Part shown: one piece after another, positions 1 through 64,000 of the stretch
How the letters are laid out: every line of letters starts with the position of its first letter
Position numbering within the stretch: the first letter of the stretch is position 1
Assembly (NCBI GenBank): GCA_944324155.1
Contig: CALUVF010000081.1
Location: 31 to 64,030, forward strand
Direction: 5' to 3'
DNA: 64,000 nt
From: an uncultured Erysipelotrichaceae bacterium
GTDB taxonomy: Bacteria; Bacillota_I; Bacilli_A; Erysipelotrichales; Erysipelotrichaceae
The notes under the pieces: model-generated
What the model was told of the DNA's origin: nothing
Seen by the model: the letters and a program-made list of their open reading frames with translations, nothing else
The model's database searches: none
Program-made: the position numbers and the translations under genes

Positions 1-33
1 TCGTGCATCAAACCTTTGAGGCCTTTGAATAGT

Positions 34-426
34 ATGTGCGTATTCTGCGAGATAATAAAGGGCAATATCCCTTCTAGCAAGGTCTATGAAGACGATAGAG
101 TCTTAGCGATCTTAGATCTTAGCCAGACCACCAAAGGTCATACCTTAGTGATGCCTAAGAAGCATTACGAAGATCTTAGTGCGATCCCAAGCGATGAATT
201 AATGGATCTGATGTCGAAGGTCCAAATGATTGCCAAACACCTTGAAAAGGTTTTAAATGCCAAAGGCTATAATATCCTGATCAATAAAGGCGAAGTCGCG
301 GGACAGACGATGATGCATCTACATGTCCACATCATACCGCGCTATAGCGAAGATGATACGATCAAGATCGAATTTAGTGAAAACAAATTCGATCTAAACA
401 GCCTATCAAAAAAAGTCAAGTTATAA
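34..426 (+). CDS. HIT-family (histidine triad) nucleotide-binding protein
   Basis: ORF 16-426. Histidine triad 'HLHVHIIP' and N-terminal 'CVFCEIIKG' are typical of HIT/Hint proteins. ATG at 34 preferred over TTG at 16. Confidence 0.85.
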   Translation: MCVFCEIIKGNIPSSKVYEDDRVLAILDLSQTTKGHTLVMPKKHYEDLSAIPSDELMDLMSKVQMIAKHLEKVLNAKGYNILINKGEVAGQTMMHLHVHIIPRYSEDDTIKIEFSENKFDLNSLSKKVKL

Positions 427-470
427 AAACTTGGCTTTTTTATCGCCTAAATCAAAAACCCCTTAAGGGC

Positions 471-1406
471 TTAATCGTGCTTATAGAAACTGCGGTTCTC
501 TAAGGCAAACAATTTAGGAGTAAACTCCCCTTCTTTGATCTGATCCAAAGCTTTTGTGATCGTATTGATACGAGCATCGATATTATCGATCAGATAGAGA
601 AGTTCCGCTTCAAGAGTCATGGGTCTGACAGGCGAGCCAAATTCTAGCTGTCCGTGATGCGCCAAAACCATATGTCTTAAGATCAGGGCTTCTTTAGCTT
701 CTGATAACTTGAGATCATCGATCACTTCTGTTAGCTTGGCATGTAAGATCGAGATATGTCCCAAAAGCTTGCCTTTGGTCGTATATTCAGTAACAATCGG
801 TGAAGACAGTTCTTCGATCTTACCAAGGTCATGTAAGATTATGCCAGCACACAGATAATCGTAATCGACCTGCGGGTAAATCTCAGTGATCGCCTTAGCC
901 ACCTCTAACATGCCTTTGACATGCGTAGCTAATCCTCCGATAAAAGAGTGATGGATCTTAGAGGCCGCCGGGTATTCATAGAAAGCTTCGCCATACTCAT
1001 TTAAGACGGCTACTGTGATCTTGGCAATGATCGGATTTTTGATGCGATTGATCGCTTCTGATAAAGCACTTCTCAATTCTTCTTTTTTGATCGGCGATTT
1101 AAAAATAAAATCGCTCTTATTGATCTCACTTTGGATCAAAGGCAAGACCTTGGCGATCTTTAATTGCAGGTTTTGACGATATTTGATGACGTCAAATTCA
1201 AACTCAAAGACCTTCCCTACTTCCATCTCTTTAGCGATCTCAGGTTTGACATCCCAGATCTTAGCTTCGATATCTTTGGAATCATCTTGTAATATAAGAC
1301 TTAGATAAGGTGCCCCGGAATTAGTCGTTCCTTTTGTCAAACCAGCGACCAAAAGAGGCATCTCAAGATGTTCGCCTTCTTTAAAATCCGCAACTTTTTT
1401 ATTCAT
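471..1406 (-). CDS. yhaM: 3'-5' exoribonuclease YhaM-like (OB-fold + HD domain)
   Basis: 311 aa. N-terminal OB-fold region and C-terminal HD motif 'ILHDLGK ... HH'. Start overlaps the stop of the upstream gene (ATGAATAA). Confidence 0.8.
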   Translation of the reverse strand: MNKKVADFKEGEHLEMPLLVAGLTKGTTNSGAPYLSLILQDDSKDIEAKIWDVKPEIAKEMEVGKVFEFEFDVIKYRQNLQLKIAKVLPLIQSEINKSDFIFKSPIKKEELRSALSEAINRIKNPIIAKITVAVLNEYGEAFYEYPAASKIHHSFIGGLATHVKGMLEVAKAITEIYPQVDYDYLCAGIILHDLGKIEELSSPIVTEYTTKGKLLGHISILHAKLTEVIDDLKLSEAKEALILRHMVLAHHGQLEFGSPVRPMTLEAELLYLIDNIDARINTITKALDQIKEGEFTPKLFALENRSFYKHD

Positions 1407-3390
1407 CTTTCCACCTCATTTCATTCAATATCGTATAGATATTATCACTAGTATAACCCTTAGAGGCCAGATAGTGATAGACGCGATTTCTAAGATCTGT
1501 CCCTGATAGTTTTTTAGCATAGCGATCTTTGGCCTTTTTAGCGTCTTTACGAAGGTTTTCGATCTCATTGAAACTAGCATCGCTGAAATCGAGTTCGTTT
1601 ATTACGCTATCGATTATCGTGCTAGAAAAGCCTTCCTCATATAGTTTTCTTTTAAGCATCATCTTTTGCATGCGCAAAGAGCGCGAACGATAATTGTTTT
1701 GATATTTTTCAGCTAGTTTATAAGCTTTCTTAAACTCTCTATCATCATCTTTATTCATGACCTTTTCGATCGTCTTGACACTTACACCATCTTTTCTTAA
1801 GGCATTTGAGATATGCTTATAAGAAAATAATTTTGCCTCAAAACTTTCGACTTTGTTTTTGGCATAGGACTCATCGTTTAAAAGTCCGAGCTTTTCTAAA
1901 CGATCGATCAAGGCATTGATCTCTTTAATCGGCATTTGAGGATACTTTTTTTGAATAAGGTCATACATCTGCTTGATAGTATAGTCTTTGCGTGCTATAG
2001 CTTTAAGACAAGCCACATAAGCCAAGATGCCAGCTTCCTTAGACTTTAAAAGATCATAGGTCGCATTAGAAATACTTTCGCCCTTGCGAAGGCCCTCGTT
2101 TAGAAAATCATCTAAGGAAACGACCAGATCTTCTTTTTCTTTATAGCCGTTTTCTAATTTGAGCTTAACATAGTCGTTATATAAACGGACATCTTTTAAA
2201 AGGTAGTAATCATGAAATTCACTCATAGCACTATTATATACATTCATGACTTTTCTAACAAAGGTATCGGCATCATATTCTTTAGCTAGTGTCAGACCCT
2301 TTTCTTTCATCTCTTCGCGTTTTGCCTTATCTAATGACCATAACTTTTCCACCTTTTGATACAGTTCTTTTTCGTCATCAAAATAAAAACCGTTCTCTTC
2401 TTCAAACAAGAGATCTTTAACACATTCATCGCGGCGGGCAAAGATGATATTGCCACTAGCCATGGCTTCTAGATAGGTCATGCCCTGGGTTTCACTTGTA
2501 GAAGCGCTGATAAAGGCATCGGCGGCATGATAGTAGCTTGGCACTTCGCTAAAAGGCTTTTTGCCGACAAAGATCGCGACATCGCCAAGTTCTAATTCTT
2601 TGGCCATATCTTTTAGGTTATCTTCATCTGGTCCCCCACCTACGATCACAAGCTTGGCAGGCAGTTTTTTATCTTTGGCGATCTTCATCATCTTCAAAAG
2701 CATGTCGATCGATTTTTCCTGCGCGATCCGGCCTACAAAAAGCAGCATCAATTCATTATCTTTGACATGGCATTCCTTTCTGATCATAGCCACCTTGGAA
2801 TGATCAGAGTGGACACGGTCAAAGCGGTCTAATTCAATACCGGTAGGAATGATCTCAGCTTTGACACCCATGCCATAGCTGGATTTTAAAAGATCGTAGG
2901 TCTTTTTAGAAGGAACGATCATTCTTAAACAGTGTTTGCCAAGATATTTGGTCCAGTTGATGACGACCTTTTTGGCAATTTTATCAAACGAGTCACTATT
3001 AAAGATGTTGATGTAGTGGGTATAGTCTTCATAAGTCGTATGATAGGTCCGCACTAAGGGAAGATGCAAAGATTCAGCGCACATCTGCCCAAAGATCCCA
3101 ACGCCAAATTCGGTATGCAGGTGAATGAGATCAAGATCCAATTTCCTAATTTCATCGATCATTAAAGGGTGTATGGGCGAAGTTAAAGCATAGCCATAGA
3201 GCTTTTTAACTTCGATCCCTGGAAGCCTGATGATGTTGCCGTCTCTTTCGACTTTCAATAAGCCCTTATGGGTACATATGACAAAAACCTCATGTCCGAG
3301 TTGACTGAGTTTTTTTCTGAGCAGTTCAACTGATGTCACGACGCCATTGACATCAGGTAGATAGGTATCTGAAAATAATCCGATCCGCAT
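1399..3390 (-). CDS. GT4 glycosyltransferase (monoglucosyl-diacylglycerol synthase-like) fused to a C-terminal RecX domain
   Basis: 663 aa. Residues 1 to about 390 are GT4 ('MRIGLFSDTYLPDVNGV', 'ETQGMTYLEAMASG'). Residues about 395-663 align by eye along the whole length with long Bacillus-type RecX ('LIDRLEKLGLLNDESYA', 'LRKDGVSVKTIEKV', 'YEEGFSSTIIDSVI', 'LASKGYTSDNIYTIL'). No stop at the junction (about nt 2208). Confidence 0.8.
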   Translation of the reverse strand: MRIGLFSDTYLPDVNGVVTSVELLRKKLSQLGHEVFVICTHKGLLKVERDGNIIRLPGIEVKKLYGYALTSPIHPLMIDEIRKLDLDLIHLHTEFGVGIFGQMCAESLHLPLVRTYHTTYEDYTHYINIFNSDSFDKIAKKVVINWTKYLGKHCLRMIVPSKKTYDLLKSSYGMGVKAEIIPTGIELDRFDRVHSDHSKVAMIRKECHVKDNELMLLFVGRIAQEKSIDMLLKMMKIAKDKKLPAKLVIVGGGPDEDNLKDMAKELELGDVAIFVGKKPFSEVPSYYHAADAFISASTSETQGMTYLEAMASGNIIFARRDECVKDLLFEEENGFYFDDEKELYQKVEKLWSLDKAKREEMKEKGLTLAKEYDADTFVRKVMNVYNSAMSEFHDYYLLKDVRLYNDYVKLKLENGYKEKEDLVVSLDDFLNEGLRKGESISNATYDLLKSKEAGILAYVACLKAIARKDYTIKQMYDLIQKKYPQMPIKEINALIDRLEKLGLLNDESYAKNKVESFEAKLFSYKHISNALRKDGVSVKTIEKVMNKDDDREFKKAYKLAEKYQNNYRSRSLRMQKMMLKRKLYEEGFSSTIIDSVINELDFSDASFNEIENLRKDAKKAKDRYAKKLSGTDLRNRVYHYLASKGYTSDNIYTILNEMRWKDE

Positions 3391-3403
3391 AAAATAACCC
3401 CCT

Positions 3404-5512: not shown

Positions 5513-6928
5513 TTATTTTACTTCAACGATCTTCATCATATTGGCACTGCCTTCACCCGTAGGATAGCCAGCCGAGATGATGATGAGCTGTCCGGGCTTT
5601 AAACCATTGGCCTTGGCAACCGCACTGGCCAGTTCATCGTCATTGGTCATTTCGTTTTGGACCTTAGAGAAGATCGGGTGAACGCCCCAATAGACTTCTA
5701 GTTTAGACTGCGTCGATTTTGAGAAAGTCACAGCATAGATCGGACAGCTTGGACGATACTTAGAAAGTCTTCGTGCCGTCGTACCACCTTGTGTAAAGAC
5801 CACGATCGCCCCAATATCTAAAGTTAGAGTCGCATCAGAAATAGATATACCGATCGCATCTTGAACGGTCTTGTCATTATATTGTTTTAAAACTTCTAAG
5901 TTATTGCGATAAGGAATGATCTTTTCGGTCGCCTCAATGATCTTGGACATCGTAGCTACTGCTTCGACGGGATAATCACCAGCGGCGCTTTCAGCCGACA
6001 ACATGACCGCATCACTGCCATCTAAGACGGCATTGGCCACATCGCTGGCTTCCGCCCTGGTGCAACGTGGGTTGGCGGTCATTGAATCTAGCATATGAGT
6101 AGCGGTGATTACAGCTTTGCCATGACGATTAGCGGCATGAATGATCTGTTTTTGATAGATTGGGACAAAGGCCGTTTCTACTTCGACCCCGAGGTCACCT
6201 CTTGCGACCATAACGCCATCAGCTGCTTCTAAGATCTCTTCGATATTGTCAAAACCTTCTTGGTTTTCGATCTTAGCGATAATATTGATCTTGGGTTTGC
6301 CCATTTCGGCCAAAATAGCACGGATAGCATTGACATCTTCGGCTCTTCTGACAAAAGATGCGGCAATATAATCGACATTGTGTTCACAACCAAAGCGAAT
6401 ATCGGCATCATCTTTTTCCGAGATAAAAGGCATCGAAAGCTTTACACCTGGAACATTGCAGCCCTTCCTTGAAGAAAGCGGACCATTGACCTCAACCTTA
6501 CAGGTCAATTCTTCGCCGTTATTGGCAAGGATCGCTAAACGCATCTTGCCATCGTTGATGAGGATATAATTTCCAGCCTTGACATCATCAAAAAGCTCTG
6601 GGCATTGGATATGGAAACGCTCGTGGGTACCGATGATCTTTTCTTTGGTGATCGTGACGGTATCGCCGATCTTATATTCCTCTTTGTCGTTGGCAAAATC
6701 CCCTAAACGGATCTCTGGTCCCTTGGTGTCAAGCATTACCCCAAGATTGATGTGGTTTTCTTTTTCGACCTGATGGATAAGCTTAATCCTTTTTTCGTGT
6801 TCTTCATAAGAACCGTGTGAAAAGTTTAAACGCACGATATTCATTCCGGCTTTCGCCATCTTTAATAGCGTATCATAGTTATCGCTGGCTGGACCTAAGG
6901 TACAGACAATTTTAGTTTGTTTATTCAT
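5513..6928 (-). CDS. pyk: pyruvate kinase
   Basis: 'KIVCTLGPAS', 'NFSHG', 'MVARGDLGVE' motifs. ATG at 6928 (MNKQTK) has AAGGGAG about 12 nt upstream. The longer ORF start at 6940 is GTG, abutting that RBS. Confidence 0.95.
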   Translation of the reverse strand: MNKQTKIVCTLGPASDNYDTLLKMAKAGMNIVRLNFSHGSYEEHEKRIKLIHQVEKENHINLGVMLDTKGPEIRLGDFANDKEEYKIGDTVTITKEKIIGTHERFHIQCPELFDDVKAGNYILINDGKMRLAILANNGEELTCKVEVNGPLSSRKGCNVPGVKLSMPFISEKDDADIRFGCEHNVDYIAASFVRRAEDVNAIRAILAEMGKPKINIIAKIENQEGFDNIEEILEAADGVMVARGDLGVEVETAFVPIYQKQIIHAANRHGKAVITATHMLDSMTANPRCTRAEASDVANAVLDGSDAVMLSAESAAGDYPVEAVATMSKIIEATEKIIPYRNNLEVLKQYNDKTVQDAIGISISDATLTLDIGAIVVFTQGGTTARRLSKYRPSCPIYAVTFSKSTQSKLEVYWGVHPIFSKVQNEMTNDDELASAVAKANGLKPGQLIIISAGYPTGEGSANMMKIVEVK

Positions 6929-6952
6929 CTTGTAAAACACTCCCTTTAAACT

Positions 6953-7988: not shown

Positions 7989-8912
7989 TTAAAATTGTCG
8001 CCGATCCCTACCACCGATCGCGATCGGATCGCATAATTTCTCGATCCTTTCTAAGAGCCTTTGGGCATTGAGCTCATTGATCGATGCATTACCGCCCTTT
8101 GTATTTCCATAATTAATCTTTAGGGTATTGAGGTCATTATTGGAAGAAATAAGTGTGCACAAAGCGTTTTCTAAGCGATAGTCAAATAAGCTAAACAAGA
8201 TGTCGTCGCGTCCAAAAGAGCTAGCACTTTCCGTGCCCAGATCATCTAAGATCAAATAAGGGACCTTGCATAACGATGAAAACAGTTTATTATATGCTTC
8301 ACGATCACTTATATATAAGGTCCTTAGTTCATTTATCAAACGCCCATACTTGCAAAAAGCCACCTTCTCATTATTTTTGGCTAAAGAGTTAGCTAAGGCT
8401 ATCAAAAGATAAGTTTTTCCAACCCCAAAAGGACCATAAATAAAGAGCCCCTTATTTCTTTCTTTCATAAAGATCTTTTTTAAAAGTACATATAAGACCT
8501 TGGAGTTTTCAGATTCAAAGTCGATCGTTTTAGAATCAAGGCTTAGATCATCAAAAGATGAGGCAATATCACGGACAATAAAGTTCTTATAGAAAGCCTG
8601 AGAGAATTTTTTGCGTTTTAAAAACGAGCAATCGCTATAAATAAGGCGTACATGATGATCATCAAGCACTTCAAGATCAAGCGCGCGGCCCTTTAGTTCA
8701 TATGGGCAACGTTCAAGACCCTGACAATTAAGACATAGTTTACTTTTATCCGCGAAGGTCTTTAAAGCATTTAATTCATATACCTCATTTAACTTTAGAG
8801 AGTGTTTATCTAAAAATTCCTGGACCGCCGTTTCCTTTTCTAACTCTTTAATAAGTTTATTGCGCTTTTTTTGATATTCCTTTTCATCTTGGATAAAGTC
8901 TTTAAATTCCAT
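7989..8912 (-). CDS. dnaI: primosomal helicase loader DnaI
   Basis: 307 aa. Cys-rich N-domain ('CLNCQGLERCP') and AAA+ Walker A 'GPFGVGKTYLL'. Downstream of a dnaB-like gene, as in Bacillus. Confidence 0.85.
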   Translation of the reverse strand: MEFKDFIQDEKEYQKKRNKLIKELEKETAVQEFLDKHSLKLNEVYELNALKTFADKSKLCLNCQGLERCPYELKGRALDLEVLDDHHVRLIYSDCSFLKRKKFSQAFYKNFIVRDIASSFDDLSLDSKTIDFESENSKVLYVLLKKIFMKERNKGLFIYGPFGVGKTYLLIALANSLAKNNEKVAFCKYGRLINELRTLYISDREAYNKLFSSLCKVPYLILDDLGTESASSFGRDDILFSLFDYRLENALCTLISSNNDLNTLKINYGNTKGGNASINELNAQRLLERIEKLCDPIAIGGRDRRQF

Positions 8913-40150: not shown

Positions 40151-40162
40151 GTGCATTCCTCC

Positions 40163-45129: not shown

Positions 45130-45130
45130 T

Positions 45131-53401: not shown

Positions 53402-54126
53402 TAACTAAGCTCCTTTTTTAACCAAATCTCGTCATTTTCATCGACTTCAAACGATAAAATATGATTTTTAGCCAAGTCTAAGATCCCTAAAAATGTCACG
53501 ACAAAGTCATGGAGGTTTTCACAATCCTCGACCAGTTTTTTAAAGTTAAAGACCTCATCAAGATCATTGAAGCGCGCTTTGATCATAAGGATACGGTCTT
53601 CGACCGACACTTCCTTCGTTGTCAGCTTGGTCGATAATGGTTTAGAAAGCTGTAAGCGTCGCATGACCTTATTCATAGCCCGCCATAAGTCCTTTACTTC
53701 TCCGCTTAGCTTATCGTCGCTGTCCTTAACAAGACTTTCGGTATCACTGAGGCTCTTGGCATATTGTAACTGTCTTTCAAGATACAATGTCTCTAATTTT
53801 AATGAAGCCTCTTTGTAGCGCTGATATTCTAGTAGACGTCTGACCAATTTCTCTTTAGGATCCTCTTCAAAAGCGCTATCTTCTTCCTCGTTTTCTCTTT
53901 TAGGCAATAATTTCTTGGATTTATATTCCACAAGCATCGCTAGTTCAACTAAATACTCGCTTTCGACCTCGAGTTTTAGATCCATCATTTCATTGATATA
54001 CTTTAAGTATTGATCACATAAACGCTCCATATCTAAGTCAAAGATATCGAGCTTTTCTTCTTTAATCAGATGTAACATGAGATCTAGCGGGCCGCTAAAT
54101 TTCTGAATGCTTGCTTCAAACGCCAT
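53401..54126 (-). CDS. scpA: segregation and condensation protein A (kleisin)
   Basis: 241 aa. 'FSGPLDLMLHLIKEEKLDIFDL' N-terminus. Confidence 0.9.
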   Translation of the reverse strand: MAFEASIQKFSGPLDLMLHLIKEEKLDIFDLDMERLCDQYLKYINEMMDLKLEVESEYLVELAMLVEYKSKKLLPKRENEEEDSAFEEDPKEKLVRRLLEYQRYKEASLKLETLYLERQLQYAKSLSDTESLVKDSDDKLSGEVKDLWRAMNKVMRRLQLSKPLSTKLTTKEVSVEDRILMIKARFNDLDEVFNFKKLVEDCENLHDFVVTFLGILDLAKNHILSFEVDENDEIWLKKELS

Positions 54127-54138
54127 ATAACCTCAACA

Positions 54139-54147
54139 ATTATACCA
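54139..54147 (-). promoter_or_regulatory. extended -10 TGGTATAAT promoter of scpA (12 nt to the ATG; very short leader)
   Basis: Minus strand caTGgTATAATtgttgaggttatATG. Confidence 0.55.
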
Positions 54148-54155
54148 TGATTTTC

Positions 54156-54185
54156 TTGACAGTAATTATCCAGCTTTGTTTAATA
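54156..54185 (+). promoter_or_regulatory. sigma-A-type promoter of rpiB
   Basis: TTGACA (54156-54161), 18-nt spacer, TGtTTAATA (extended -10). RBS GAAAGAAGG precedes the ATG at 54209. Confidence 0.55.
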
Positions 54186-54208
54186 AAAGAAAGAAAGAAG
54201 GTATAGAC

Positions 54209-54652
54209 ATGAAAGTAGTTATCGGAAATGATCATGGGGCAATCCATTTAAAGGAAATACTCAAAAATCACCTCTTAGACAAAGGACATGAAGTAATTGA
54301 TTTGGGTATCAAGGAAGGAGAAAGTGTCGATTATCCAATAAAGGGCAAAGAGATCGCTGAGTATGTCTTAAAGCATGATGTCGCCTTTGGGATCGCTTTA
54401 TGCGGTACTGGTATCGGGATCTCGATCGCCTGCAACAAGATCAAAGGGATCCGTGCGGCTGTTTGTAGCGAGCCTTTCAGCGCTAAAAAAGCCAAAGAGC
54501 ACAACAACGCCAATATCCTTTGCATGGGCGGGCGCGTCGTCGGCGATGAACTTGCGATCATGATCCTAGATGAATATATGAAAGCTTCTTTTGCAGGAGG
54601 AAGGCATCAAAGAAGGGTCGATCTAATTAGCGATATTGAGGCTAAAAACTAG
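54209..54652 (+). CDS. rpiB: ribose-5-phosphate isomerase B
   Basis: 'MKVVIGNDHGA', 'CGTGIGISIACNK', 'HNNANILCMGGR' motifs. The ORF-track start at 54176 lies upstream of the RBS. Confidence 0.9.
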   Translation: MKVVIGNDHGAIHLKEILKNHLLDKGHEVIDLGIKEGESVDYPIKGKEIAEYVLKHDVAFGIALCGTGIGISIACNKIKGIRAAVCSEPFSAKKAKEHNNANILCMGGRVVGDELAIMILDEYMKASFAGGRHQRRVDLISDIEAKN

Positions 54653-54670
54653 GAAATCCCTAGTTTTTTT
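54644..54670. terminator. bidirectional terminator built into the overlapping 3' ends of rpiB and the P-loop kinase gene
   Basis: AAAAACTAGG-aaatc-CCTAGTTTTTTT. Both stop codons lie in the stem arms. Confidence 0.8.
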
Positions 54671-55155
54671 AAATAATTGTCAATCTCTCGATGATTTTTA
54701 AAGCGCTGTTTTTCCCCTTTAAAATCACGATAGATTGTTTCAAATTTTAAAAGATAGTCTCTTTTCCTTCCTTCAAACAAGATCCATTTTAAAAAGTCAT
54801 AGTCAAAATGTTCTTTAGCGCCAAGCGATTCACGGTATTTTCCGCGATTTTTAAAATAGCGTCTTAAGGCATAATAAAGACAAACCAAGCGGTTTAAGTC
54901 GAGAAATAGTAAAACGTCAGCTTCTTTGAAACGCTCTTTGACGATATGGAAGTAATTGCCCTCTACTACCCAAGAGTCATGTTTATCAAAAAACTTTATG
55001 GCTAGCGCTTCTTGGGCCTTTACATCGCGCTCTTTAAAGTCGCCATAGTACTTTAAGGTATCCATATGAAGTAGCGCAATTTTATGATGTTTGCTTAAAA
55101 CTTTGGCCAGGGTCGATTTGCCTGAGGCACTATGTCCGATGATAACGATCTTCAT
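54649..55155 (-). CDS. P-loop NTPase/kinase of the topology-modulation (FlaR)/adenylate-kinase-like family
   Basis: 'MKIVIIGHSASGKSTLAK', 'WVVEGNY', 'FLDLNRLVCLYYALRRYFKNRG'. ATG at 55155 overlaps the GNAT stop (ATGA). Confidence 0.7.
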   Translation of the reverse strand: MKIVIIGHSASGKSTLAKVLSKHHKIALLHMDTLKYYGDFKERDVKAQEALAIKFFDKHDSWVVEGNYFHIVKERFKEADVLLFLDLNRLVCLYYALRRYFKNRGKYRESLGAKEHFDYDFLKWILFEGRKRDYLLKFETIYRDFKGEKQRFKNHREIDNYLKKLGIS

Positions 55156-55673
55156 CTTAGATCGATCCAATATCTTTGAACGATCTTCGTACCCTCAAGT
55201 ATCTCATTTTCTAAGATCCCACCGTTATTGATGATCGATTTGGCCGATCCGATATTATCTTTATCACATACCAACAAGACGCGCTCGATACCTAATTTTT
55301 TGCATTCTTCTAAGCCCAATTTAATCATCTTGGTAGCATAGCCCTTTCTTCTTTCTGTAGGCCTGATACCATCGCCAATGTGACCACCGAATTTTAAAAG
55401 ATAATCATTTAGATAATGGCGAATATTGATCGCTCCGACCATAATATGGCGCTTTTCATCAAGACAGAAGAAAGTTGAAGATGGGACCTTGCCATCTTTA
55501 GGTTCATGATAATCAATGCGATCGCAATAAAACCCAAAATCCTGCCAGTCATTTTTAAAGATAGCGGCGGGCGAAGTGTTGGCGTCAGGATGCAAACTAT
55601 TAAAGGCACTCCACTCCTTTAACATATCAATTATCAGCTCTTTATACTCCATACTGGCTTTTACTAGTTTCAT
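55152..55673 (-). CDS. GNAT-family N-acetyltransferase
   Basis: 173 aa. 'VGAINIRHYL...IRPTERRKGYATKMIKLGLEECKKLG' acetyl-CoA-binding motif A. GGAGG RBS. Confidence 0.7.
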   Translation of the reverse strand: MKLVKASMEYKELIIDMLKEWSAFNSLHPDANTSPAAIFKNDWQDFGFYCDRIDYHEPKDGKVPSSTFFCLDEKRHIMVGAINIRHYLNDYLLKFGGHIGDGIRPTERRKGYATKMIKLGLEECKKLGIERVLLVCDKDNIGSAKSIINNGGILENEILEGTKIVQRYWIDLR

Positions 55674-55676
55674 TTT

Positions 55677-56378
55677 TCAAACCTCCACAATTAATGCCTC
55701 TTCTTTTTCATAGCCTAAACTTTTAATGATCTTTCCTTCTTTAATATAAAAGGCATTGCCATAAGACTTAGGATCTTTACTTAGGGCATTCACGATAAGG
55801 ACATTTTCAAAACCTTTTGCGGCCATCGCATATTCTTCTTCCATCTTTTTAAAGCATTCTAGATCAAAGTTAACATATATCGGCCAAAGCAAGATCCCCT
55901 CTTTTTTAAAGCGCCCAGGGCATACAAACATATCGCCACAAAGCGCAATAGTAAATTTCTTATCGTCAAGCATAAAACTCCTGACGCTTTCGCCCTCACT
56001 ATAATGATTATCGGTTTTTGTATACTCTTTCCATTGTTTTGATATACGCCGATAATTATTGATGATCGCTCCTTTATTGATAGTCAGGTAGGAAGAATAG
56101 ATCTTTTCATCACACTTTTCAAAATATCCGAAGCTTATTGCCATATCATATTCTTTAGATAGATCTTTAATTTCTGTAATGTATTTAGAACTTAAAGAAA
56201 CAGCTATCTTCTTATCGTGATCATAATCCCAATTTAAGGCGTCGAAACCTTGTAAAAAGCTCTCAGAAAAACAAAGCATATCAAGATTACTATATCTTTT
56301 CATAGCCCTTTTGATCTTATTAAAGTTGAATGTTAAGTCACCATTTTTAAATTCTGCGACAACCAAAGCGACCTTCAT
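55677..56378 (-). CDS. carbon-nitrogen hydrolase (nitrilase-superfamily) protein
   Basis: 233 aa. Candidate E-K-C triad contexts 'LCFSESFLQGF', 'YRRISKQW', 'IALCGDMF'. Confidence 0.65.
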   Translation of the reverse strand: MKVALVVAEFKNGDLTFNFNKIKRAMKRYSNLDMLCFSESFLQGFDALNWDYDHDKKIAVSLSSKYITEIKDLSKEYDMAISFGYFEKCDEKIYSSYLTINKGAIINNYRRISKQWKEYTKTDNHYSEGESVRSFMLDDKKFTIALCGDMFVCPGRFKKEGILLWPIYVNFDLECFKKMEEEYAMAAKGFENVLIVNALSKDPKSYGNAFYIKEGKIIKSLGYEKEEALIVEV

Positions 56379-56390
56379 AAGACAAGTTTA

Positions 56391-56906
56391 TCAGAAAGCA
56401 CTAAAATTTAAATATTCTGTTTTTAAAAAATCATTGACGATCTTCTCTAGGATCTCTTCATAAGCTATCACTCGCTCCTTAAAGACCATATACAAAGGCA
56501 TCGGTTCTAGATCTAGCCTTTTAATATTTAGGATAGCTCTTTTCTTTTTTGGGTCGATCGTTTCTATTTTGACGAGATCTAAATAGGGCATCACCCTTTG
56601 CATATCGCAAATTAGGGCATCATATTTCTTTATATCTTTAAAGTCATAGTTTTCATAGACATTATCAAGATAAAGATGAAAGAAATGGCCAAGGCTAAAA
56701 TTGTCGCGTGTTTTAACTTTTAAAAGAAAGGTCTTAAGATCGCATAGTCCCTCGGCGGTATTTTTAAAATGAAGTTTTAAAAACAGTTTTTCATCATCTA
56801 AAACATCAGGATAGGCTGATCCCAAAAACAAGTCTCTTAAATCTTGAATATTTAATTTTTCCCCTAAAATCAGAGCGAGATTTAAATGAGTCGAAAGTTT
56901 GGGCAT
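56391..56906 (-). CDS. hypothetical protein (weak resemblance to metal-dependent hydrolase / Zn-phospholipase-C-like His/Asp pattern)
   Basis: 171 aa. 'STHLNLA', 'GSAYPD', 'LGHFFHLYLD'. GAAGGGA RBS. Function not recognised. Confidence 0.45.
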   Translation of the reverse strand: MPKLSTHLNLALILGEKLNIQDLRDLFLGSAYPDVLDDEKLFLKLHFKNTAEGLCDLKTFLLKVKTRDNFSLGHFFHLYLDNVYENYDFKDIKKYDALICDMQRVMPYLDLVKIETIDPKKKRAILNIKRLDLEPMPLYMVFKERVIAYEEILEKIVNDFLKTEYLNFSAF

Positions 56907-56907
56907 G

Positions 56908-57744
56908 TTATTTCCCTTCTAAAAAATTCTTGATATTTTGATAAGCGATCTTATGAATCTCTTCATCATTAAAATTACAATAATCTAATATCTTCATATA
57001 GTCATCATATACCTCTTCGCTGCTTATGATCCGACTAAATGGCCAATTACTCGCAAAGACCAAGCGGTCGATCTTAAAACTTCTAAGGATCTCATTGGTC
57101 TTTTTTAAGCCGAAGGTCTTGGCATAATCTGGAAGGACCGCCGACATATCGACATAACAATTTAGATGCAGTAGTTCTTCAAACTCTAAATAACCCATAT
57201 GCGAGACCATCATTTTTAATTTTGGATACCTTTTTAAGACCCTTCGGATCTTAGAAACCGAACACAGATCATCATTCGCATCAGGATAAGAGTGAACACA
57301 GACACATATACCCCTATTTTGTGCATATTCCAAAAGTGGTCTGTTATAGTCGCTGTCGATGGGAAAGCCCGAGTTGGTCGGGTGTAATTTAAGGCCATCA
57401 AAGCCATACTTTTCGATTGCTTCTTCAACATATTTAAGGCTGTCTGAGGCTGTGTTAAAGGGATCGATGTCAGCGAAGATATAAAAGCGATCCGGATATT
57501 CTTTTTTAAACTTTAAAAGATTCTCATGGACCTCCCTAACCTTGAATTGCATCGCCAAATAGATCGGATCATTAAAAGGCATGATCACAGCTTTTTCGAT
57601 ATTATAGCGCTCCATGATTTCAAGATAAGTTTCTAATTTCGCTTTAGAATAAGCGTCCTTAAATCCAGGCTGAGCTTTATGGATCTCATCGGGGACAAGA
57701 TGGATATGTCCATCGATCTTTTTAACACTTTTCCAACCTAACAT
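56908..57744 (-). CDS. amidohydrolase-2 (TIM-barrel metal-dependent hydrolase) family protein
   Basis: 278 aa. 'IDGHIHLVP', 'KLHP', 'VCVHS', 'MVSHMG', 'FASNWPF' ligand pattern. GAAGGAGAAGG RBS. Overlaps the radical-SAM stop. Confidence 0.7.
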   Translation of the reverse strand: MLGWKSVKKIDGHIHLVPDEIHKAQPGFKDAYSKAKLETYLEIMERYNIEKAVIMPFNDPIYLAMQFKVREVHENLLKFKKEYPDRFYIFADIDPFNTASDSLKYVEEAIEKYGFDGLKLHPTNSGFPIDSDYNRPLLEYAQNRGICVCVHSYPDANDDLCSVSKIRRVLKRYPKLKMMVSHMGYLEFEELLHLNCYVDMSAVLPDYAKTFGLKKTNEILRSFKIDRLVFASNWPFSRIISSEEVYDDYMKILDYCNFNDEEIHKIAYQNIKNFLEGK

Positions 57745-58841
57745 ACGCCTTCTCCTTCATAATTATCCATTAAAGCCATGATCCCAGCGATCTTGTTGGG
57801 ATAGACATAGTTGTTTGATGATGGGCTTAGATGTCTTTCTTTAACGGCGTCTAGGATATCGGGATAATGGATCTTAGAGCTTTCGTAATAATTATCTTCG
57901 GCCACTATGATCGCCTTTAATATATCGTCAGTATCGAGCTTTTTGATATTTCCTAAAAGTTTCAGATTAATGCCGGTATTTCCTAAATAGAAATTTAAGT
58001 TTTGATCGATATGGAAAAAGGCAGTATATTTACTTTCAAGTTCTTTTTGAACCATTGAATAATCGAGATTTTTGATGATGTTTTCTTCATTAAAGAGTGA
58101 TACCTTAGCTTTTAGATCCGTGGTGTCGATAGCTAATGCATCTAAAAAAGGAACGATCTTTTGATAATCATCTTTATCACATCGGATCTTTTGATATTTC
58201 TTAAGCCTAGATAAAGGCAGGTAGTCACAAATGACTGGCAAGATGTGATCATAGCGGATCTTTTTTAAAACTATTGAAAGCTCATCTAATTCTTTGACCA
58301 TTTCTTTATTAAAAATCAAAGAGATCCAGACCTCTAAGCCCATATCTTTAAAGAGATTAGCAGCTTCGATCAAAGAATCGAGGGCACCTTCTTTAAAGAC
58401 GATCGCATCATGTATCTTGTTAGGGCCATGGATCGCAAGAGAGACATCTAGCCAGTTATTTTCTTTTAAAATTTCGATGATCTGATCTTTTCGCTTCTCA
58501 TTTAAAAAGGCGATCCCAGTCGTTGATCCATGGTGAAAATAATTGTCTTTGACATGAGATTTGACATAGTCTAAGATCTCTAAACAAGCCGGGTGATTAT
58601 AGAGCTCATTATCTAAAGTAAAACTGATCCTATCCTTCAGAACTTCAAAAACACCTTGAAGCTTATCAAGGCAAAGTTTGAAATCATCTAAGTTCATAAT
58701 CTTGCCCCTTCCGCCATCGACATAGCAGTGCAGACAAGATGTATTGCAACCAGCTACTAAAATATCAATATTATAGTCCATAACTGTCTTTATTCTAGCA
58801 TATGCACCTGGTTTTGAAATTGTTAAGTTAAGTTGACACAT
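57738..58841 (-). CDS. radical SAM enzyme, unassigned subfamily
   Basis: CX3CX2C 'GCNTSCLHCY' near the N-terminus. No Cys-rich SPASM-type C-terminus seen. Alternative start is M21 at 58781, preceded by TGCTAGAAT-N10. Confidence 0.7.
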   Translation of the reverse strand: MCQLNLTISKPGAYARIKTVMDYNIDILVAGCNTSCLHCYVDGGRGKIMNLDDFKLCLDKLQGVFEVLKDRISFTLDNELYNHPACLEILDYVKSHVKDNYFHHGSTTGIAFLNEKRKDQIIEILKENNWLDVSLAIHGPNKIHDAIVFKEGALDSLIEAANLFKDMGLEVWISLIFNKEMVKELDELSIVLKKIRYDHILPVICDYLPLSRLKKYQKIRCDKDDYQKIVPFLDALAIDTTDLKAKVSLFNEENIIKNLDYSMVQKELESKYTAFFHIDQNLNFYLGNTGINLKLLGNIKKLDTDDILKAIIVAEDNYYESSKIHYPDILDAVKERHLSPSSNNYVYPNKIAGIMALMDNYEGEGVC

Positions 58842-58910
58842 TTACAAGTAGGGTTGATAGAAATTATATGGGTGATACTTTACAATATAGTTAGAAAGAG
58901 AGGGAAATTC

Positions 58911-59600
58911 ATGAACATCTCTGATCGAATCCTAGAACAAAGAAAAATCAAAGGAATGTCGCAAAGCGAACTAGCTGATGCGATCGGTGTGTCAAGACAA
59001 TCGGTATCAAAATGGGAAAGCGAACAGTCTTTGCCAGATATGGACAAGATCATCTTGATGAGCGATCTGTTTGGTGTTACGACCGATTATCTCTTAAAAG
59101 GAATCGAAGCAGAAAAGAAAGAAGCATCGTCCTTAAAGATCGACCCCCTAATCTTTGTCATCATTGCCTCGGCCTTTTCGTTTGTGAGCGTTATTTATTT
59201 CCTTTTTTCAGATGAAAGAAAAGATTTTTGGGTCTTGTTGTGCTTAATTGTAAGCCTGGCTATCTATTTTATTGGCCTAGTCATCACCAAAAACAGCACC
59301 CGTGTAAACAAGTTGTTTTGGACGATCAATATCTGGCCGATCGCCTTTTCTGGTTTTCAAGTAATTTGTTCCTTTATAAGTTATAACGTCTCTTATGGAA
59401 TACTTCGCTATTGGCCAATGTTATATTTACCACAAAAAACTTATCTTGAATATAGTCCTTACAATATTAATTACAGCAAATTAAAAGGACAATACGATAA
59501 AGCTTTGGGACTTTTTATAATACTTTGGATCTTTTATTTAGTTTTATGTATAGGGGTGGAATTTATAATAAATAGAAAATCTAAAAAGAGCCTCTCCTGA
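58911..59600 (+). CDS. XRE-family HTH regulator with C-terminal multi-pass membrane domain
   Basis: 'ILEQRKIKGMSQSELADAIGVSRQSVSKWESEQSLPDMDKIILMSDLFGVTTDYLL' plus 4-5 hydrophobic helices. ATG at 58911 with a GAGAGGG RBS. The ORF-track TTG start at 58833 is rejected. Confidence 0.8.
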   Translation: MNISDRILEQRKIKGMSQSELADAIGVSRQSVSKWESEQSLPDMDKIILMSDLFGVTTDYLLKGIEAEKKEASSLKIDPLIFVIIASAFSFVSVIYFLFSDERKDFWVLLCLIVSLAIYFIGLVITKNSTRVNKLFWTINIWPIAFSGFQVICSFISYNVSYGILRYWPMLYLPQKTYLEYSPYNINYSKLKGQYDKALGLFIILWIFYLVLCIGVEFIINRKSKKSLS

Positions 59601-59640
59601 TTTTTAAAGACAGTCAAGTTTTAAATTGTTCTCCTTAAAC

Positions 59641-59668
59641 AAACCATCAAAAGCCTTGATGGTTTTTA
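59641..59668. terminator. rho-independent terminator between the convergent HTH and GNAT genes
   Basis: AAACCATCAA-aagcc-TTGATGGTTT followed by TTAT. Confidence 0.8.
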
Positions 59669-60145
59669 TCAGGCAACCGCGATCCTAATAGCCTCTTCTC
59701 TATCGTTTCCTGCAAGGCAATCATAAAAGCGTTTGGCCTCTTCGTTTGTGGCGGTTAGAATGATGAGTTCTGTAATCCCCTTCTTTTTTAGATCACTTAA
59801 AAGTGCTTTGACCATCAATTGGGCCACACCTTTTCTTCTTTGGCTTTTTAATACAGCGATCCAATCAAGATAAGCACTTTCGATAAGTCCGTTATATCTT
59901 GTGACGATCAAAGAGGCATCAAGTCTTCCAATGACTTTATCATCGATTAAGGCAATGTAAGATAAGGCCGTGTTAAATGAGGGGTCAGAAAAACTTGACA
60001 CGATCTGTCTTTTATAATCTTCGTTAATTTGGGTGAAATAGGTATCAGGCTCTTCTTTACGGAGCTCTTTTTCAAAAGCTATCAGCTTATCTAACTCATC
60101 TATCTCAAATCTTTTAACTTTCATAAAATTCCTTGATATATTCAT
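59669..60145 (-). CDS. GNAT-family N-acetyltransferase
   Basis: 158 aa. 'WIAVLKSQRRKGVAQLMVKALLSDLKKKG' motif A. Alternative start is M8 at 60124; either start overlaps the upstream kinase gene. Confidence 0.75.
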   Translation of the reverse strand: MNISRNFMKVKRFEIDELDKLIAFEKELRKEEPDTYFTQINEDYKRQIVSSFSDPSFNTALSYIALIDDKVIGRLDASLIVTRYNGLIESAYLDWIAVLKSQRRKGVAQLMVKALLSDLKKKGITELIILTATNEEAKRFYDCLAGNDREEAIRIAVA

Positions 60146-60599
60146 CTGCTTCTTGATGCGATCTAAAAATATAAATTCTTTTATCTTGATATCTATTTAG
60201 AAGTTCATAGATAGGTTTGGTATCAAAATTTTCTATGAACTTTATAAAGTCCGGATCGAGTTCTTCTTCGATCCAAGGCATATCCAAACGTTTAGTTTTA
60301 AGACGTTTTTTCACGCCTTCGATACATTTATCTTTAGGAAGATCTAAGAAAAAGATCGTATCGGCGTGCCGTATTCTTTCATTCATCGTTGAAAAATAGT
60401 TGCCATCAATGATCCACTCTTCTTTACCTAAAACATCAGCGAGTCGTTTCTTAAATTCTTCCTTAGATACAGTGGTCTTATCTTTACGCCAATAGATGAG
60501 ATCAAGATGATATAAAGGTAACCCTGTTGTCTTTGATAGTCCTCTCGCAAAGGTGGACTTGCCCGAGCCAGGCGAGCCGATGATCAATACTTTTTTCAT
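60114..60599 (-). CDS. P-loop NTPase/kinase of the topology-modulation (FlaR)/adenylate-kinase-like family (paralogue of 54649-55155)
   Basis: 'MKKVLIIGSPGSGKSTFAR', 'WIIDGNY', 'IFFLDLPKDKCIEGVKKRLK'. ATG at 60599 preferred over 60647, which lies inside the MBL gene. Confidence 0.7.
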   Translation of the reverse strand: MKKVLIIGSPGSGKSTFARGLSKTTGLPLYHLDLIYWRKDKTTVSKEEFKKRLADVLGKEEWIIDGNYFSTMNERIRHADTIFFLDLPKDKCIEGVKKRLKTKRLDMPWIEEELDPDFIKFIENFDTKPIYELLNRYQDKRIYIFRSHQEADEYIKEFYES

Positions 60600-60601
60600 A
60601 T

Positions 60602-61270: not shown

Positions 61271-61287
61271 GTTAGCTCCTTATAAAT

Positions 61288-61314
61288 TTGGGCACGTTAA
61301 AACGTGCCCTTTTC
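61288..61314. terminator. stem-loop terminator downstream of leuS
   Basis: GGGCACGT-taaa-ACGTGCCC. The T-tract is on the plus-strand side and only AAATTT on the leuS side, so orientation is ambiguous. Confidence 0.6.
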
Positions 61315-63711
61315 TTAAATTACGATATTGATGATCTCAGACTTGATCACGAAGTGTTTCTTGATGGTCTGGCCATCGGTGTATTTTTTGACATTTTCTT
61401 GATCTAGAGCCAAGGCATAGAGCTTTTCGTCTTCCAGACCGCTTTGGGCCATGAATTTAGCTCGAACCTTGCCATTGATCTGAACGACGATCTCTATTTC
61501 ATCAAGTTTGATCTTGCTTTCATCATAGCTTGGCCACTTACGGTAAGCCAGATCACTTAAGCCTGTCAAGCGCTCGTAGATCTCATTGCCCAGATGTGGT
61601 GCAAAACATGAAAACATCTGGACAAAATTGATCGCATATTCGCGATAGACCTTTTTGGTCTTATAACATTCATTGATAAAGATCATCATTTGAGAAATAG
61701 CCGTATTGAGATTTAAGGAATCGATGTCGCTTGTGACCTTTTTAACCGTATAGTTATAGACATAGTCCAAAGAATGATCGTTAGTGTCTTTTAAACAATC
61801 ACTCATTTCGATAAACAGGCGCCAGACGCGATCCAACCAGCGTTTGGTCCCTTCGATTCCCTGTGTAGACCAGGGCTTATCAGCTTCTAAAGGCCCCATA
61901 AACATCTCATAGACCCTTAAGGCGTCAGCCCCGTAATCTCGGACGATATCGTTGGGATTGACGACGAATTCCGGATAGCGCTTGCCCATTTTAATGCCAT
62001 TGGCACCAAGGATATAGCCTTGATGTACTAAACGTTTAAAAGGCTCCTTGGTGGGGACAAGACCCTGGTCATAGAGGAAGTTGTTCCACATTCTTGAATA
62101 CAAGAGATGACCGACAGCGTGTTCTGGACCGCCGACATACAGGTCGACTGGCATCCAATGTTTTAAAAGCTCATAGTCGGCAAAACGATCGCTGTTATGG
62201 GGATCAATATATCTTAAAAAGTACCAGCTTGAACCAGCCGAGCCCGGCATTGTCGAAGTCTCGCGCTGTCCCTTTTTTCCATGATAGATGACATTTACCC
62301 AATCCGTGGCCTTATCAAGCGGAGCACCAGTCTTAGAAGGACCATAGTCATCTAACATCGGCAAAATTAAAGGCAGATCTTTTTCATCTAGTACCCCGAT
62401 CGTACCATCTTCATAGTGGATCACCGGGATCGGTTCGCCCCAATATCTCTGACGGGCAAAGATCCACTCTCTTAAACGGTAGTTGGTATGGGCTTCACCC
62501 ACTCCTTTTTCTTTAAGCCAAGCGATCATCTTAGCGATCGCCTCTTTTTTATCAAGACCGTCTAAGAAGCCGGAATTGATATGTTTGCCATCGCCTATGA
62601 AAGCTTCTTGAGCGATATCACCGCCTTCTAAAACCGGAATGATCGGGATATCAAATTTCTTGGCAAAGGCATAGTCTCTTTCATCATGGGCTGGGACAGC
62701 CATGATGGCCCCGGTACCATAGCTCATAAGGACATAGTCAGAGATCCAAATCGGGATCGCCTTATCATTTACCGGGTTGATCGCATAAGCTCCGGTAAAG
62801 ACCCCCGTCTTATCTTTATTTAACTCAGTTCTTTCAAGTTCTGACTTAGAGGCGCACTCTTTTTGATAAGCTTTCACCTTTTCAGATTGCATAGGATCAG
62901 TGATCTTATCGACTAAGGGGTGTTCAGGCGATAAGACACAATATGTCGCACCAAACAAGGTATCAGGACGAGTAGTATAAACTATAAACTCTTCATCGTG
63001 ATCCTTGATCTTAAAAGTGACGTGTGCCCCTGTTGACTTACCGATCCAGTTGCGTTGGATCTCCTTAGTGCTCTCTGGCCAGTCGAGATCATCGAGGTTC
63101 TCTAAAAGACGCTCCGCATATTTGGGGATATCGATGATCCACTGGCGCATGTTTTTCCTGACGACTGGATAGCCACCGCGTTCCGATTTGCCGTCGATGA
63201 CTTCATCATTGGCCAAGACCGTCCCTAATTCTTCACACCAGTTGACCGGCATCTCGACACATTTGGCAAGACCAGCCTTATACAGTTCGATGAAGATCCA
63301 CTGGGTCCACTTATAATACTCTGGATCTGATGTGATGACTTCTTTGGACCAGTCATAAGAAAAACCTAAGGACTTTAATTGTTCTGTGAAAGTTTCAATG
63401 TTTTTCATGGTAAAGCCATCGGGGTGATTGCCGGTTTGAATGGCATACTGCTCCGCTGGCAAACCAAAGGCATCATATCCCATGGGGTGCAATACATTGT
63501 AGCCCTCCATACGTTTTTTACGTGCAACGATATCCGTAGCCGTATATCCTTCGGGGTGTCCGGCATGGAGCCCGACCCCGCTGGGATAAGGAAACATATC
63601 TAAGACATAGTATTTTGGTTTGGAAAAATCATAGACATCAGTTTTAAAGGTCTCGTTTTCTTCCCAAAATTTCTGCCACTTTTTTTCAATCTCATGAAAG
63701 TTATAACTCAT
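61315..63711 (-). CDS. leuS: leucine-tRNA ligase
   Basis: 798 aa. '[12 protein letters not shown]' (HIGH-type) and 'KMGKR' (KMSKS-type) signatures. CP1 editing domain. Confidence 0.95.
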
Positions 63712-63734
63712 AATTTATCCCTCTTTTTGTTACC

Positions 63735-63762
63735 TATCTATGATAAGAGTTTTGGCTGTCAA
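63735..63762 (-). promoter_or_regulatory. candidate sigma-A promoter of leuS
   Basis: Minus strand TTGACA (63757-63762), 16-nt spacer, TAGATA (63735-63740). Short leader with a GAGGG RBS, too short for a T-box. Confidence 0.5.
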
Positions 63763-63824
63763 ATTCAATATCTGAAAAAATTTACATTCTTATTAAGAAA
63801 TATTTTCAAATTGTGATAGTTGTG

Positions 63825-63838
63825 TGAAAACGCTTTCG
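63825..63838. promoter_or_regulatory. candidate cre (CcpA operator) upstream of the last plus-strand gene
   Basis: TGAAAACGCTTTCG matches TGWAANCGNTNWCA at 13/14 positions. It ends 10 nt upstream of a TATAAT at 63849-63854. Confidence 0.5.
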
Positions 63839-63881
63839 TATTAAGTGCTATAATAAAAAAGTGTTTAAGGGGGATATGTTT

Positions 63882-64000
63882 ATGAATGTTTTATTGACAT
63901 CACCTAATTTTCCATTAAATTTTTATAATTTTGCCCGCGCCTTAAAAGAAAAAGGCGTAACGGTCTTAGCGATCGGCTATGCACCTTATGAAAGCCTAAG
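63882..64000 (+). CDS. 5' fragment of a gene running off the window (N-terminus resembles ATP-grasp / carboxylate-amine-ligase-type proteins)
   Basis: AAGGGGG RBS 8 nt before the ATG at 63882. 'MNVLLTSPNFPLNFYNFARALKEKGVTVLAIGYAPYESL' stays open to the window end. The family call is from memory of similar N-termini only. Confidence 0.4.
   Translation, partial: MNVLLTSPNFPLNFYNFARALKEKGVTVLAIGYAPYESL

Follow-up and report, generated by a model that had tools for sequence, protein, structure and literature searches.

The window analysed here, a stretch of 64,000 nucleotides (nt), belongs to contig C81 of a metagenome-assembled genome (MAG) of an Erysipelotrichaceae bacterium (153 contigs, 1.31 Mb, 96% complete), and a single four-base palindrome, GATC, is strongly over-represented in it. 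As a rule, palindromes of this length are neutral or removed by restriction. Exact counting finds 834 GATC sites in the window, one per 76.7 nt at 40.6% G+C, corresponding to an observed-to-expected ratio (O/E) of 3.61 against base composition; first- and second-order Markov models lower the ratio to 2.45 and 1.30, respectively. The last of these figures is over-conservative and understates the effect, because 40% of GAT trinucleotides sit inside GATC (14,890 of 37,191 in the whole genome), leaving GAT without a following C about 1.19-fold enriched. The excess extends over every one of the 32 2-kb bins of the window (O/E 2.6-5.1) and over the whole genome, where GATC has an O/E of 3.13 and ranks first among the 256 4-mers.

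A first-pass annotation of the same DNA had drawn attention to GATC from hand counts of four stretches (9 sites in 1-420, 10 in 481-900, 6 in 40141-40680 and 8 in 56101-56640), all of which prove exact. Its description of a signal that is window-wide, probably genome-wide and maintained in the lower-GC accessory block (Table 1) holds, as does its burst of four sites, confirmed by count. Full counting also places the ratio well above the 1-1.5 that had been named as the level of no real excess. The estimated magnitude of 4-5-fold was too high, because the hand-sampled stretches are denser than the window average.

Table 1. Features of the window that are used in the analysis, with the basis on which each was identified or examined.
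Feature	Position	Strand	Basis and use
Window-wide GATC excess	1..64000	.	834 sites; exact counts, Markov models, 2-kb bins
Pyruvate kinase gene	5513..6940	-	Pfam; used to reach strain sets of GATC-rich relatives
Four-GATC burst in 32 nt	8001..8032	.	Count and gap statistics
Lower-GC accessory block, 35-39% G+C	54001..60000	.	GATC O/E 3.7-4.5; 2-kb bins
leuS (leucyl-tRNA synthetase)	61315..63711	-	Pfam; marker for family placement, with which 80 relatives were fetched

Because the accessory block keeps the full GATC excess, it is either long resident or derived from a GATC-rich relative. Elsewhere in the assembly, the excess is missing from contigs C133-C148 (among them C144, of 9.9 kb and 44% GC, C146, C145 and C143) and likewise from C46:5799-6860 and C80:9149-10168; in all of them O/E is 0-0.7, and their G+C differs as well, at 26-60%. 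The likely origins of these GATC-poor contigs and genes are foreign islands, phages or plasmids, or contamination of the bin.

The excess is not a consequence of codon usage. Synonymous codons were permuted within each gene among positions of the same amino acid, over 1,090 non-overlapping long open reading frames (ORFs) that make up 83% of the genome, and the shuffled sequences contain 7,152±56 GATC versus the 13,115 observed. The observed/shuffled ratio of 1.84 ranks GATC first of 256 words, and AATC, at 0.58, is among the most depleted. The first-pass annotation had reported GATC in all three codon phases, and each phase does exceed the shuffles, though nnG-ATC dominates with 8,965 sites (68% of coding GATC) versus 3,972 shuffled, a 2.26-fold excess; GAT-Cnn accounts for 3,722 sites versus 2,857, and nGA-TCn for 428 versus 323. 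A by-product of GAT and ATC codon preference, which the same annotation had raised against itself, is thus rejected by the synonymous shuffles, and it is rejected again by the codon-context tables, in which the choice among synonymous codons depends on the neighbouring codon. When ATC follows, AAG makes up 91% of Lys codons (40% elsewhere), GAG 88% of Glu codons (23-29%), ACG 77% of Thr codons (~20%) and CCG 71% of Pro codons (15-18%). Following GAT, Leu is CTN in 84% of cases versus 58-69% after AAT, CAT or TAT, and GGA is twice as common before TCN (28% versus 14%). In the same tables, codons that start with A but are not ATC do not in general attract a G before them. The interaction of G with ATC at four-fold sites has an odds ratio of 3-6 and comes at the expense of all three other bases, the loss of the transition partner being ~1.8-fold greater than that of the other bases. 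Because all phases respond and codon choice is neighbour-dependent, it is the word GATC itself that is favoured, at all four positions. Translational selection, which predicts a stronger effect in highly expressed genes, is rejected, as the effect is weaker there: 23 genes for ribosomal proteins and elongation factors have a G x ATC odds ratio of 2.1 (confidence interval 1.1-4.0) versus 4.33 genome-wide, with one GATC per 108 nt versus one per 78 nt.

A strict non-coding set was defined by the lack of any open stretch of at least 70 codons in any frame, and comprises 259 segments with a total of 33.7 kb at 32% G+C. It holds 127 GATC versus 94±10 in shuffled sequence, an O/E of 1.26-1.35 that places the word 51st of 256, and the first-order Markov O/E is 1.75. 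By the odds ratio of its outer positions, 1.45, GATC is the highest of the 16 4-bp palindromes in this DNA. The intergenic excess claimed in the first-pass annotation is therefore present, but not at a strength equal to that of coding DNA. Genome-wide, the most enriched 6-mers are CGATCG (6.4-fold), in agreement with the context noted earlier by eye, and GCGATC (6.6-fold), while GGATCC is depleted amid the GATC excess (O/E 0.72). A longer true motif was considered and rejected, as flank preferences are weak and the cyanobacterial 8-mer GCGATCGC, known as HIP1, is rare, with 109 occurrences in the genome. Regular spacing or density homeostasis was likewise rejected: the gaps between sites are near-exponential, with a coefficient of variation of 1.07 and no excess of short gaps, and the variance/mean of GATC counts is 1.18 per 500 nt and ranges from 1.18 to 1.59. 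Local bursts such as the one in Table 1 are expected at this density, because spacing is near-Poisson throughout the genome.

As an Erysipelotrichaceae bacterium, the organism is related to the mollicutes without being one; its leucyl-tRNA synthetase (LeuRS) shares 64-78% identity with the LeuRS of gut and rumen members of the family, both MAGs and isolates. At the loci of the 80 relatives, GATC O/E runs from 0.05 to 4.3. In a LeuRS tree the window falls in a well-supported clade of 15 genomes, of which 9 are GATC-rich, 5 are poor and 1 is intermediate, and which holds sisters with O/E values of 3.87 and 0.10; GATC-rich genomes also occur among Faecalitalea and Faecalicoccus. A survey of whole genomes was based on the count of GATCN{0,30}GATC, with density taken as the square root of count/(31 x bases), a measure that gives 1/89 nt for the window's own genome versus a true 1/88 nt; genomes denser than 1/128 nt, equivalent to an O/E of at least 2 at any G+C, were classed as rich. 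Within the family, 87 of 401 species are denser than 1/128 nt and 47 are denser than 1/100 nt, and only 6 of 352 genomes sampled from the same class outside the family reach 1/128 nt. Density is bimodal inside genera, at ~1/70-1/100 nt versus 1/350-1/750 nt. The window's genus has 8 species at 1/70-1/95 nt and 3 at 1/342-1/740 nt, and another genus has 13 species at 1/74-1/121 nt and 23 at 1/242-1/751 nt. A GATC-poor species of the window's genus, represented by a MAG of many 2-kb contigs from which 96 kb were used for composition, has an O/E of 0.65, and its odds ratio for G x ATC, 0.14 versus 4.3 in the window's genome, marks a 30-fold swing. GATC richness is thus a property of lineages that has switched between on and off inside Erysipelotrichaceae genera, and no earlier report of a GATC excess in Erysipelotrichaceae or other Firmicutes was found in the literature.

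Richness is accompanied by other compositional differences. GATC O/E rises with G+C (Spearman 0.73), genomes dense in GATC tend to be sparse in CTAG (r=-0.63), and rich species have no CpG deficit. Among the relatives L001-L080, the rich ones have, by comparison with their poor sisters, 2-4x more CpG-containing 4-mers (CGGA, TCGA, CCGA, CCGG) and three times fewer CTAG, such that the whole oligonucleotide signature differs, beyond GATC. The largest difference between rich and poor genomes in any word is by far that of GATC itself, at 5.6-fold.

The enzymes known to act on GATC were sought with seven Pfam families, of which the six beyond Dam were searched in 41 genomes and Dam also in 401 species. 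The window's own genome has no match to Dam (PF02086), to C5 (PF00145) or N4/N6 (PF01555) methyltransferases, or to MutH/Sau3AI (PF02976), DpnI (PF06044), DpnII (PF04556) or Vsr (PF03852). A scan of all its ORFs of at least 150 aa for amino-methyltransferase and C5 motifs returned only PrmC, a small RNA-methylase-like protein and a PglX-like protein, the last of which sits on a low-GATC contig. Seven other GATC-rich genomes that were searched likewise lack the known GATC enzymes. Across the 401 species, Dam-class methyltransferases are negatively associated with GATC richness (Mann-Whitney p=6.5e-7): a strong D12 (Dam-class) match occurs in none of the 87 rich species, not even in those with a completeness of 90% or more, and any match in 5 of 87, versus 16% and 27%, respectively, in the poorest GATC class. 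Known GATC enzymes as the cause of richness are thus rejected, as none of the seven families goes with it, and the link to Dam-like G6mATC or GAT5mC methylation that the first-pass annotation had put forward is not supported, as far as gene content can speak to it.

Some relatives do possess such enzymes. Matches to PF02976 were found in 5 of 41 relatives, and 4 of them, including one in a rich genome, are frames of ~470-510 aa typical of Sau3AI-type enzymes; one of the relatives' proteins was confirmed as a Sau3AI-family endonuclease by NCBIfam NF040973 at 564 bits. The DpnII cassettes that were found lie in GATC-poor or intermediate genomes. One rich relative (G005, contig C17; L085:5400-9000) carries a compact island with Vsr, a Sau3AI-family endonuclease and a dcm-type methylase, inside which GATC O/E is 0.6-2 and outside which the flanks stand at 3-4.6. 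Because the island is GATC-poor amid rich flanks, it is a recent arrival and was rejected as the cause of richness. The genome that this GATC-cutting restriction-modification (R-M) system seems to have entered so recently has a site every 70 nt. A low-GC defence island of Faecalitalea cylindroides ATCC 27803 (L086:1-9527) encodes two C5 methylases, Vsr, an McrB-like ATPase and a QatA-like protein; the two methylases are only 23-27% identical to the Sau3AI-type methylase of G005 and unrelated to it. In one rich species, a 494-aa PF01555 methyltransferase (L145:2608-4092, compared with L151-L160) is inserted between the DAGK and DUF937 genes; the gene is truncated in strain L149 and missing at the same place in a sister rich species.

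Whether mutation or fixation maintains the excess was addressed with polymorphism in two GATC-rich relatives, the window's own species having no strains on record, with a GATC-poor species as control; three further species were left out, their strains being too few or too similar. Rare variants were defined as those with the minor allele in at most 3 of 10 strains and were polarised by the majority allele. In F. cylindroides (O/E 2.4), 500 rare single-nucleotide polymorphisms (SNPs) from 22.4 kb of 10 strains include 27 GATC losses and 5 gains, and a further 9.3 kb, from a partly different strain set, adds 14 losses and 2 gains. The pooled losses:gains of 41:7 compare with 999:960 for other 4-mers of two G or C (Fisher p=1.2e-6). 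The second rich species (O/E 3.3-3.9), whose pyruvate kinase is 78% identical to that of the window, has 20:5 versus 394:415 (p=0.002), and in both rich relatives GATC ranks first of 256 words by losses minus gains. Only 3 of the 12 GATC-creating SNPs in the two species arose from GATT or AATC. Synonymous C>T or G>A changes affect 10.3% and 8.6% of GATC sites versus 8.3-9.2% of other synonymous C/G positions. GATC is thus neither a deamination hotspot nor protected from mutation, and a hotspot of m5C deamination at GATC, which had been considered, is not seen. Variants that destroy GATC are rarer at higher frequency (5 of 43 versus 105 of 396, p=0.04), and the GATC-poor control species, with 0 losses and 2 gains, departs in the expected direction at low power.

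Because mutation erodes GATC about five times faster than it creates the word, yet rich density is stable across species with saturated synonymous sites, we conclude that GATC abundance stands above mutational equilibrium and is held there by a fixation bias, whether selection or transmission drive. The loss/gain ratio, ~5.6 relative to other words, matches the codon-context odds ratio of 4-6, as expected at mutation-selection balance with S of ~1.6. Where the first-pass annotation had left a choice between positive selection and a mutational or repair bias, the directional force it called for is indeed needed, and the ratios of 41:7 and 20:5 favour a fixation bias over the mutational or repair alternative.

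Four other explanations deserve consideration. If nnG-AUC were favoured in decoding, the excess would be a by-product of codon-junction habits together with preferred GAT and ATC codons, and such a translation-level codon-pair preference is consistent with the largest excess over shuffles lying in the phase that holds 68% of coding GATC, and with the far weaker excess of non-coding DNA. We regard it as unlikely in view of the weaker effect in highly expressed genes (odds ratio 2.1 versus 4.33), the response of phases 0 and 1 at synonymous choices, the first place of GATC among 4-bp palindromes for outer-position odds ratio in non-coding DNA, and the lack of a general G preference before A-starting codons; moreover, a congener lies at the opposite extreme (odds ratio 0.14), and GATC is a palindrome and a classic restriction and modification site. 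The excess might instead be produced without selection, by a very-short-patch-like or other context-specific repair process that turns near-GATC words, especially GATT/AATC, into GATC. The action of Dcm and Vsr of Escherichia coli on CCWGG is an established precedent for such a process, and GATT/AATC are indeed depleted (O/E 0.75, first-order Markov 0.54, and 0.58 for AATC versus shuffles), ~1.8-fold more so than transversion neighbours at synonymous sites. A bias of this kind is nonetheless very unlikely to be the cause: neither Vsr nor a C5 methyltransferase is present in the window's own genome, C and T also yield to G at four-fold sites, which is impossible for a transition-only process, and rare SNPs in the two rich species destroy GATC 4-6x more often than they create it, with few of the creating events starting from GATT/AATC.

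Methylation could also be present but hidden from view, if the methyltransferase were missing from the MAGs, on an unbinned mobile island or as a member of an unrecognised family, and dense methylated sites were selected for a methyl-dependent function comparable to those of Dam, SeqA and MutH or of DmtA/DmtC and HIP1. MAGs do lose islands, one rich relative has a Sau3AI-type R-M system with Vsr and another rich species has the 494-aa PF01555 methyltransferase, and in cyanobacteria HIP1 abundance accompanies GATC and CGATCG methyltransferases and the effect of HIP1 on transformation is methylation-dependent (PMC4390886; PMC13756078). Yet a 96%-complete genome yields no candidate in six family searches and the motif scan, the seven other rich genomes searched yield none either, and a strong D12 match is missing from all 87 rich species, the at least 90% complete ones included. 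The Sau3AI island, being GATC-poor within rich flanks, arrived recently, the PF01555 gene is an insertion missing from a sister rich species and from the window's own genome, and the lack of a C>T hotspot at GATC argues against GAT5mC, so that hidden methylation, too, seems an unlikely cause. Finally, the excess may be a decaying leftover of a past force, or a rider on a general shift in signature (higher G+C, no CpG deficit, CTAG deficit), possibly through GC-biased gene conversion. The correlation of GATC O/E with G+C, the CpG-containing words that are 2-4x commoner in rich relatives and the opposed densities of GATC and CTAG are all compatible with this, and decay would equally give more losses than gains. 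Either version is, however, difficult to reconcile with the steady 1/70-1/100 nt that many rich species of a genus with saturated synonymous sites maintain, with a polymorphism ratio of ~5.6 that matches the equilibrium odds ratio of 4-6, with loss variants skewed to low frequency, with GATC being by far the largest rich/poor difference (5.6-fold), and with an effect specific to the 4-mer, not to third-position G or C. On balance we consider a relic or side effect improbable.

The explanation towards which we lean, and which we hold to be somewhat probable, is that GATC is a short, highly iterated palindrome on which a weak per-site force at the level of DNA favours GATC over every one-letter neighbour. 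The force would act on the DNA word itself and not on protein or codon usage, and a fixation bias of about e^S = 4-6 would keep ~15,000 sites in a 1.3-Mb genome, far above the level that mutation alone would give. The sites would be unmethylated and would be read by a dimeric, sequence-specific factor, with a benefit or transmission advantage that adds up site by site; a palindromic site of 4 bp suggests a DNA-binding protein of this sort, akin to those of restriction, modification or repair. Which function the word might serve is more speculative. The preferred, although unproven, role would be that of a 'self' word in DNA uptake or homologous recombination, comparable to the uptake signal sequences (USS) of Pasteurellaceae, the DNA uptake sequences (DUS) of Neisseriaceae, Chi, or HIP1. 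Such a role would be incompatible with Dam/DpnII-type systems, and that incompatibility would explain the anti-correlation with Dam and the bimodality of density. In its most extended form the proposal makes unmethylated GATC a 'self' word of 4 bp in many Erysipelotrichaceae, which the competence or recombination machinery would read as a minimal Firmicute counterpart of USS/DUS, Chi or HIP1. Each site would help the word to spread through an advantage in transmission or repair, the word and Dam/DpnII-type systems would be mutually exclusive, and lineages would flip between the rich and the purged state through gain or loss of the reader or arrival of a GATC R-M system, which would raise a barrier to gene flow between sister species of gut and rumen. 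This extended form is a possibility that we put forward tentatively and consider doubtful. Of the competence machinery, the pseudopilus genes were looked for and found: a comGA-GB-GC-GF operon lies on C95:10626-13731 of the window's own genome (tblastn with F. cylindroides proteins, 27-36% identity), and comG adjoins leuS in F. cylindroides and Faecalicoccus (L014:6289-9758; L133:6188-9634). One Faecalicoccus contig has comGA split in two.

Several points weigh against a DNA-level force of this kind. The main unexplained one is the weak non-coding signal, since the excess there (odds ratio 1.45) is much weaker than at synonymous sites (2.4-6), and a uniform force should act equally or more in non-coding DNA, unless short intergenic DNA is heavily constrained. 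The effect is also stronger in phase nnG-ATC than in the other phases, and the polymorphism tests were made in relatives and not in the window's own species. Conservation of site positions between rich species is only moderate, with 408 shared versus 322 expected, in part through shared ancestry, and it seems that many sites rather than particular ones matter. MAGs often miss mobile islands, such that the absence of a methyltransferase gene is not proof. As for a reader, the known-family searches and motif scan found no such protein, and we know of no precedent for an uptake or recombination signal of 4 bp.

The same four-letter word, or words used in the same manner, recur in several known systems. 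Dam, MutH and SeqA of the Gammaproteobacteria employ GATC as a dense, protein-read, genome-wide mark; here, in contrast, Dam and MutH are missing (SeqA was not searched for), and in this family Dam goes with GATC poverty. In Dam-bearing E. coli K-12, the GATC count is near expectation. USS, DUS and Chi are short words that have accumulated genome-wide, partly in genes, by per-site advantage, but they are 5-12 nt long, non-palindromic and orientation-dependent, whereas GATC is a 4-bp palindrome. Avoidance of DpnII, MboI and Sau3AI sites concerns the same word, and many species of the family strongly avoid GATC, with O/E down to 0.05; the window's own genome, however, has the opposite sign (3.1-3.6-fold enriched) and lacks such R-M genes. 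The mycobacteriophages of subcluster B3 have GATC/GGATCC about 4x too frequently in hosts without Dam, and the cause was left unexplained (Siranosian et al. 2015, PMC4841201). In those phages GGATCC is over-represented as well, whereas the genome studied here is cellular and depleted of GGATCC.

The closest described case is HIP1 of cyanobacteria, which like the present word is a palindrome with a GATC core (Elhai 2015, PMC4390886). Both are over-represented genome-wide, inside genes, in all frames and to an extent that varies among lineages, and both are maintained by selection rather than neutrally replenished, as was demonstrated for HIP1 (Xu et al. 2018, PMC5861425) and is shown here in two relatives. 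HIP1 has been proposed to act in DNA uptake and in methylation-dependent enhancement of transformation (Rodriguez-Cruz et al. 2026, PMC13756078), although its function is still debated. The differences are considerable. The unit here is a bare 4-mer with an excess of 3-4-fold versus 15-300-fold for HIP1, and the sites are spaced at ~1 per 80 nt versus ~1 per kb. Cognate orphan methyltransferases of the DmtA and DmtC type were not found in the searches described above, and Dam is anti-correlated with richness. HIP1 has a periodicity of 10-90 kb, whereas spacing here is near-Poisson at the scales testable in a 153-contig MAG, and the hosts are cyanobacteria in one case and gut Erysipelotrichaceae (Bacillota) in the other. 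The present case is a highly iterated palindrome cut down to four bases, for which no cognate methyltransferase was found, in a family of gut Firmicutes.

One four-base palindrome is here actively kept at ~1 per 80 nt, and this in more than one-fifth of the species of a family that is prominent in gut and rumen. If selection or drive is indeed responsible, some factor would read unmethylated GATC genome-wide, and finding it would bear on the 30-year-old question of HIP1; F. cylindroides offers a cultivable GATC-rich organism in which to look. On the practical side, GATC density is a strong and cheap marker for binning and for the detection of foreign DNA in these genomes, and methods based on MboI, DpnII or Sau3AI, such as Hi-C and RAD, cut them ~4x more often than expected.

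A few further observations concern neighbouring matters. The pyruvate kinase ORF of the window, read from the GTG at 6940, encodes 475 aa and the identical product on record has 471 aa; the true start is probably four codons downstream of that GTG. Among strains of CAG:762, which is GATC-poor, one carries an additional gene for an Eco57I-type methyltransferase (L125:15287-16594), and two carry an IS605 OrfB/TnpB element at the end of the locus (L127:21749-22391 and L128:21761-22391). In the window as in the genome, ACGT is strongly avoided, with an O/E of 0.25-0.29 and, at 0.43, the lowest value of all 4-mers versus synonymous shuffles, and GTAC (O/E 0.28-0.31) and CGTA are strongly avoided as well, which suggests that ACGT and GTAC are, or once were, targets of restriction.

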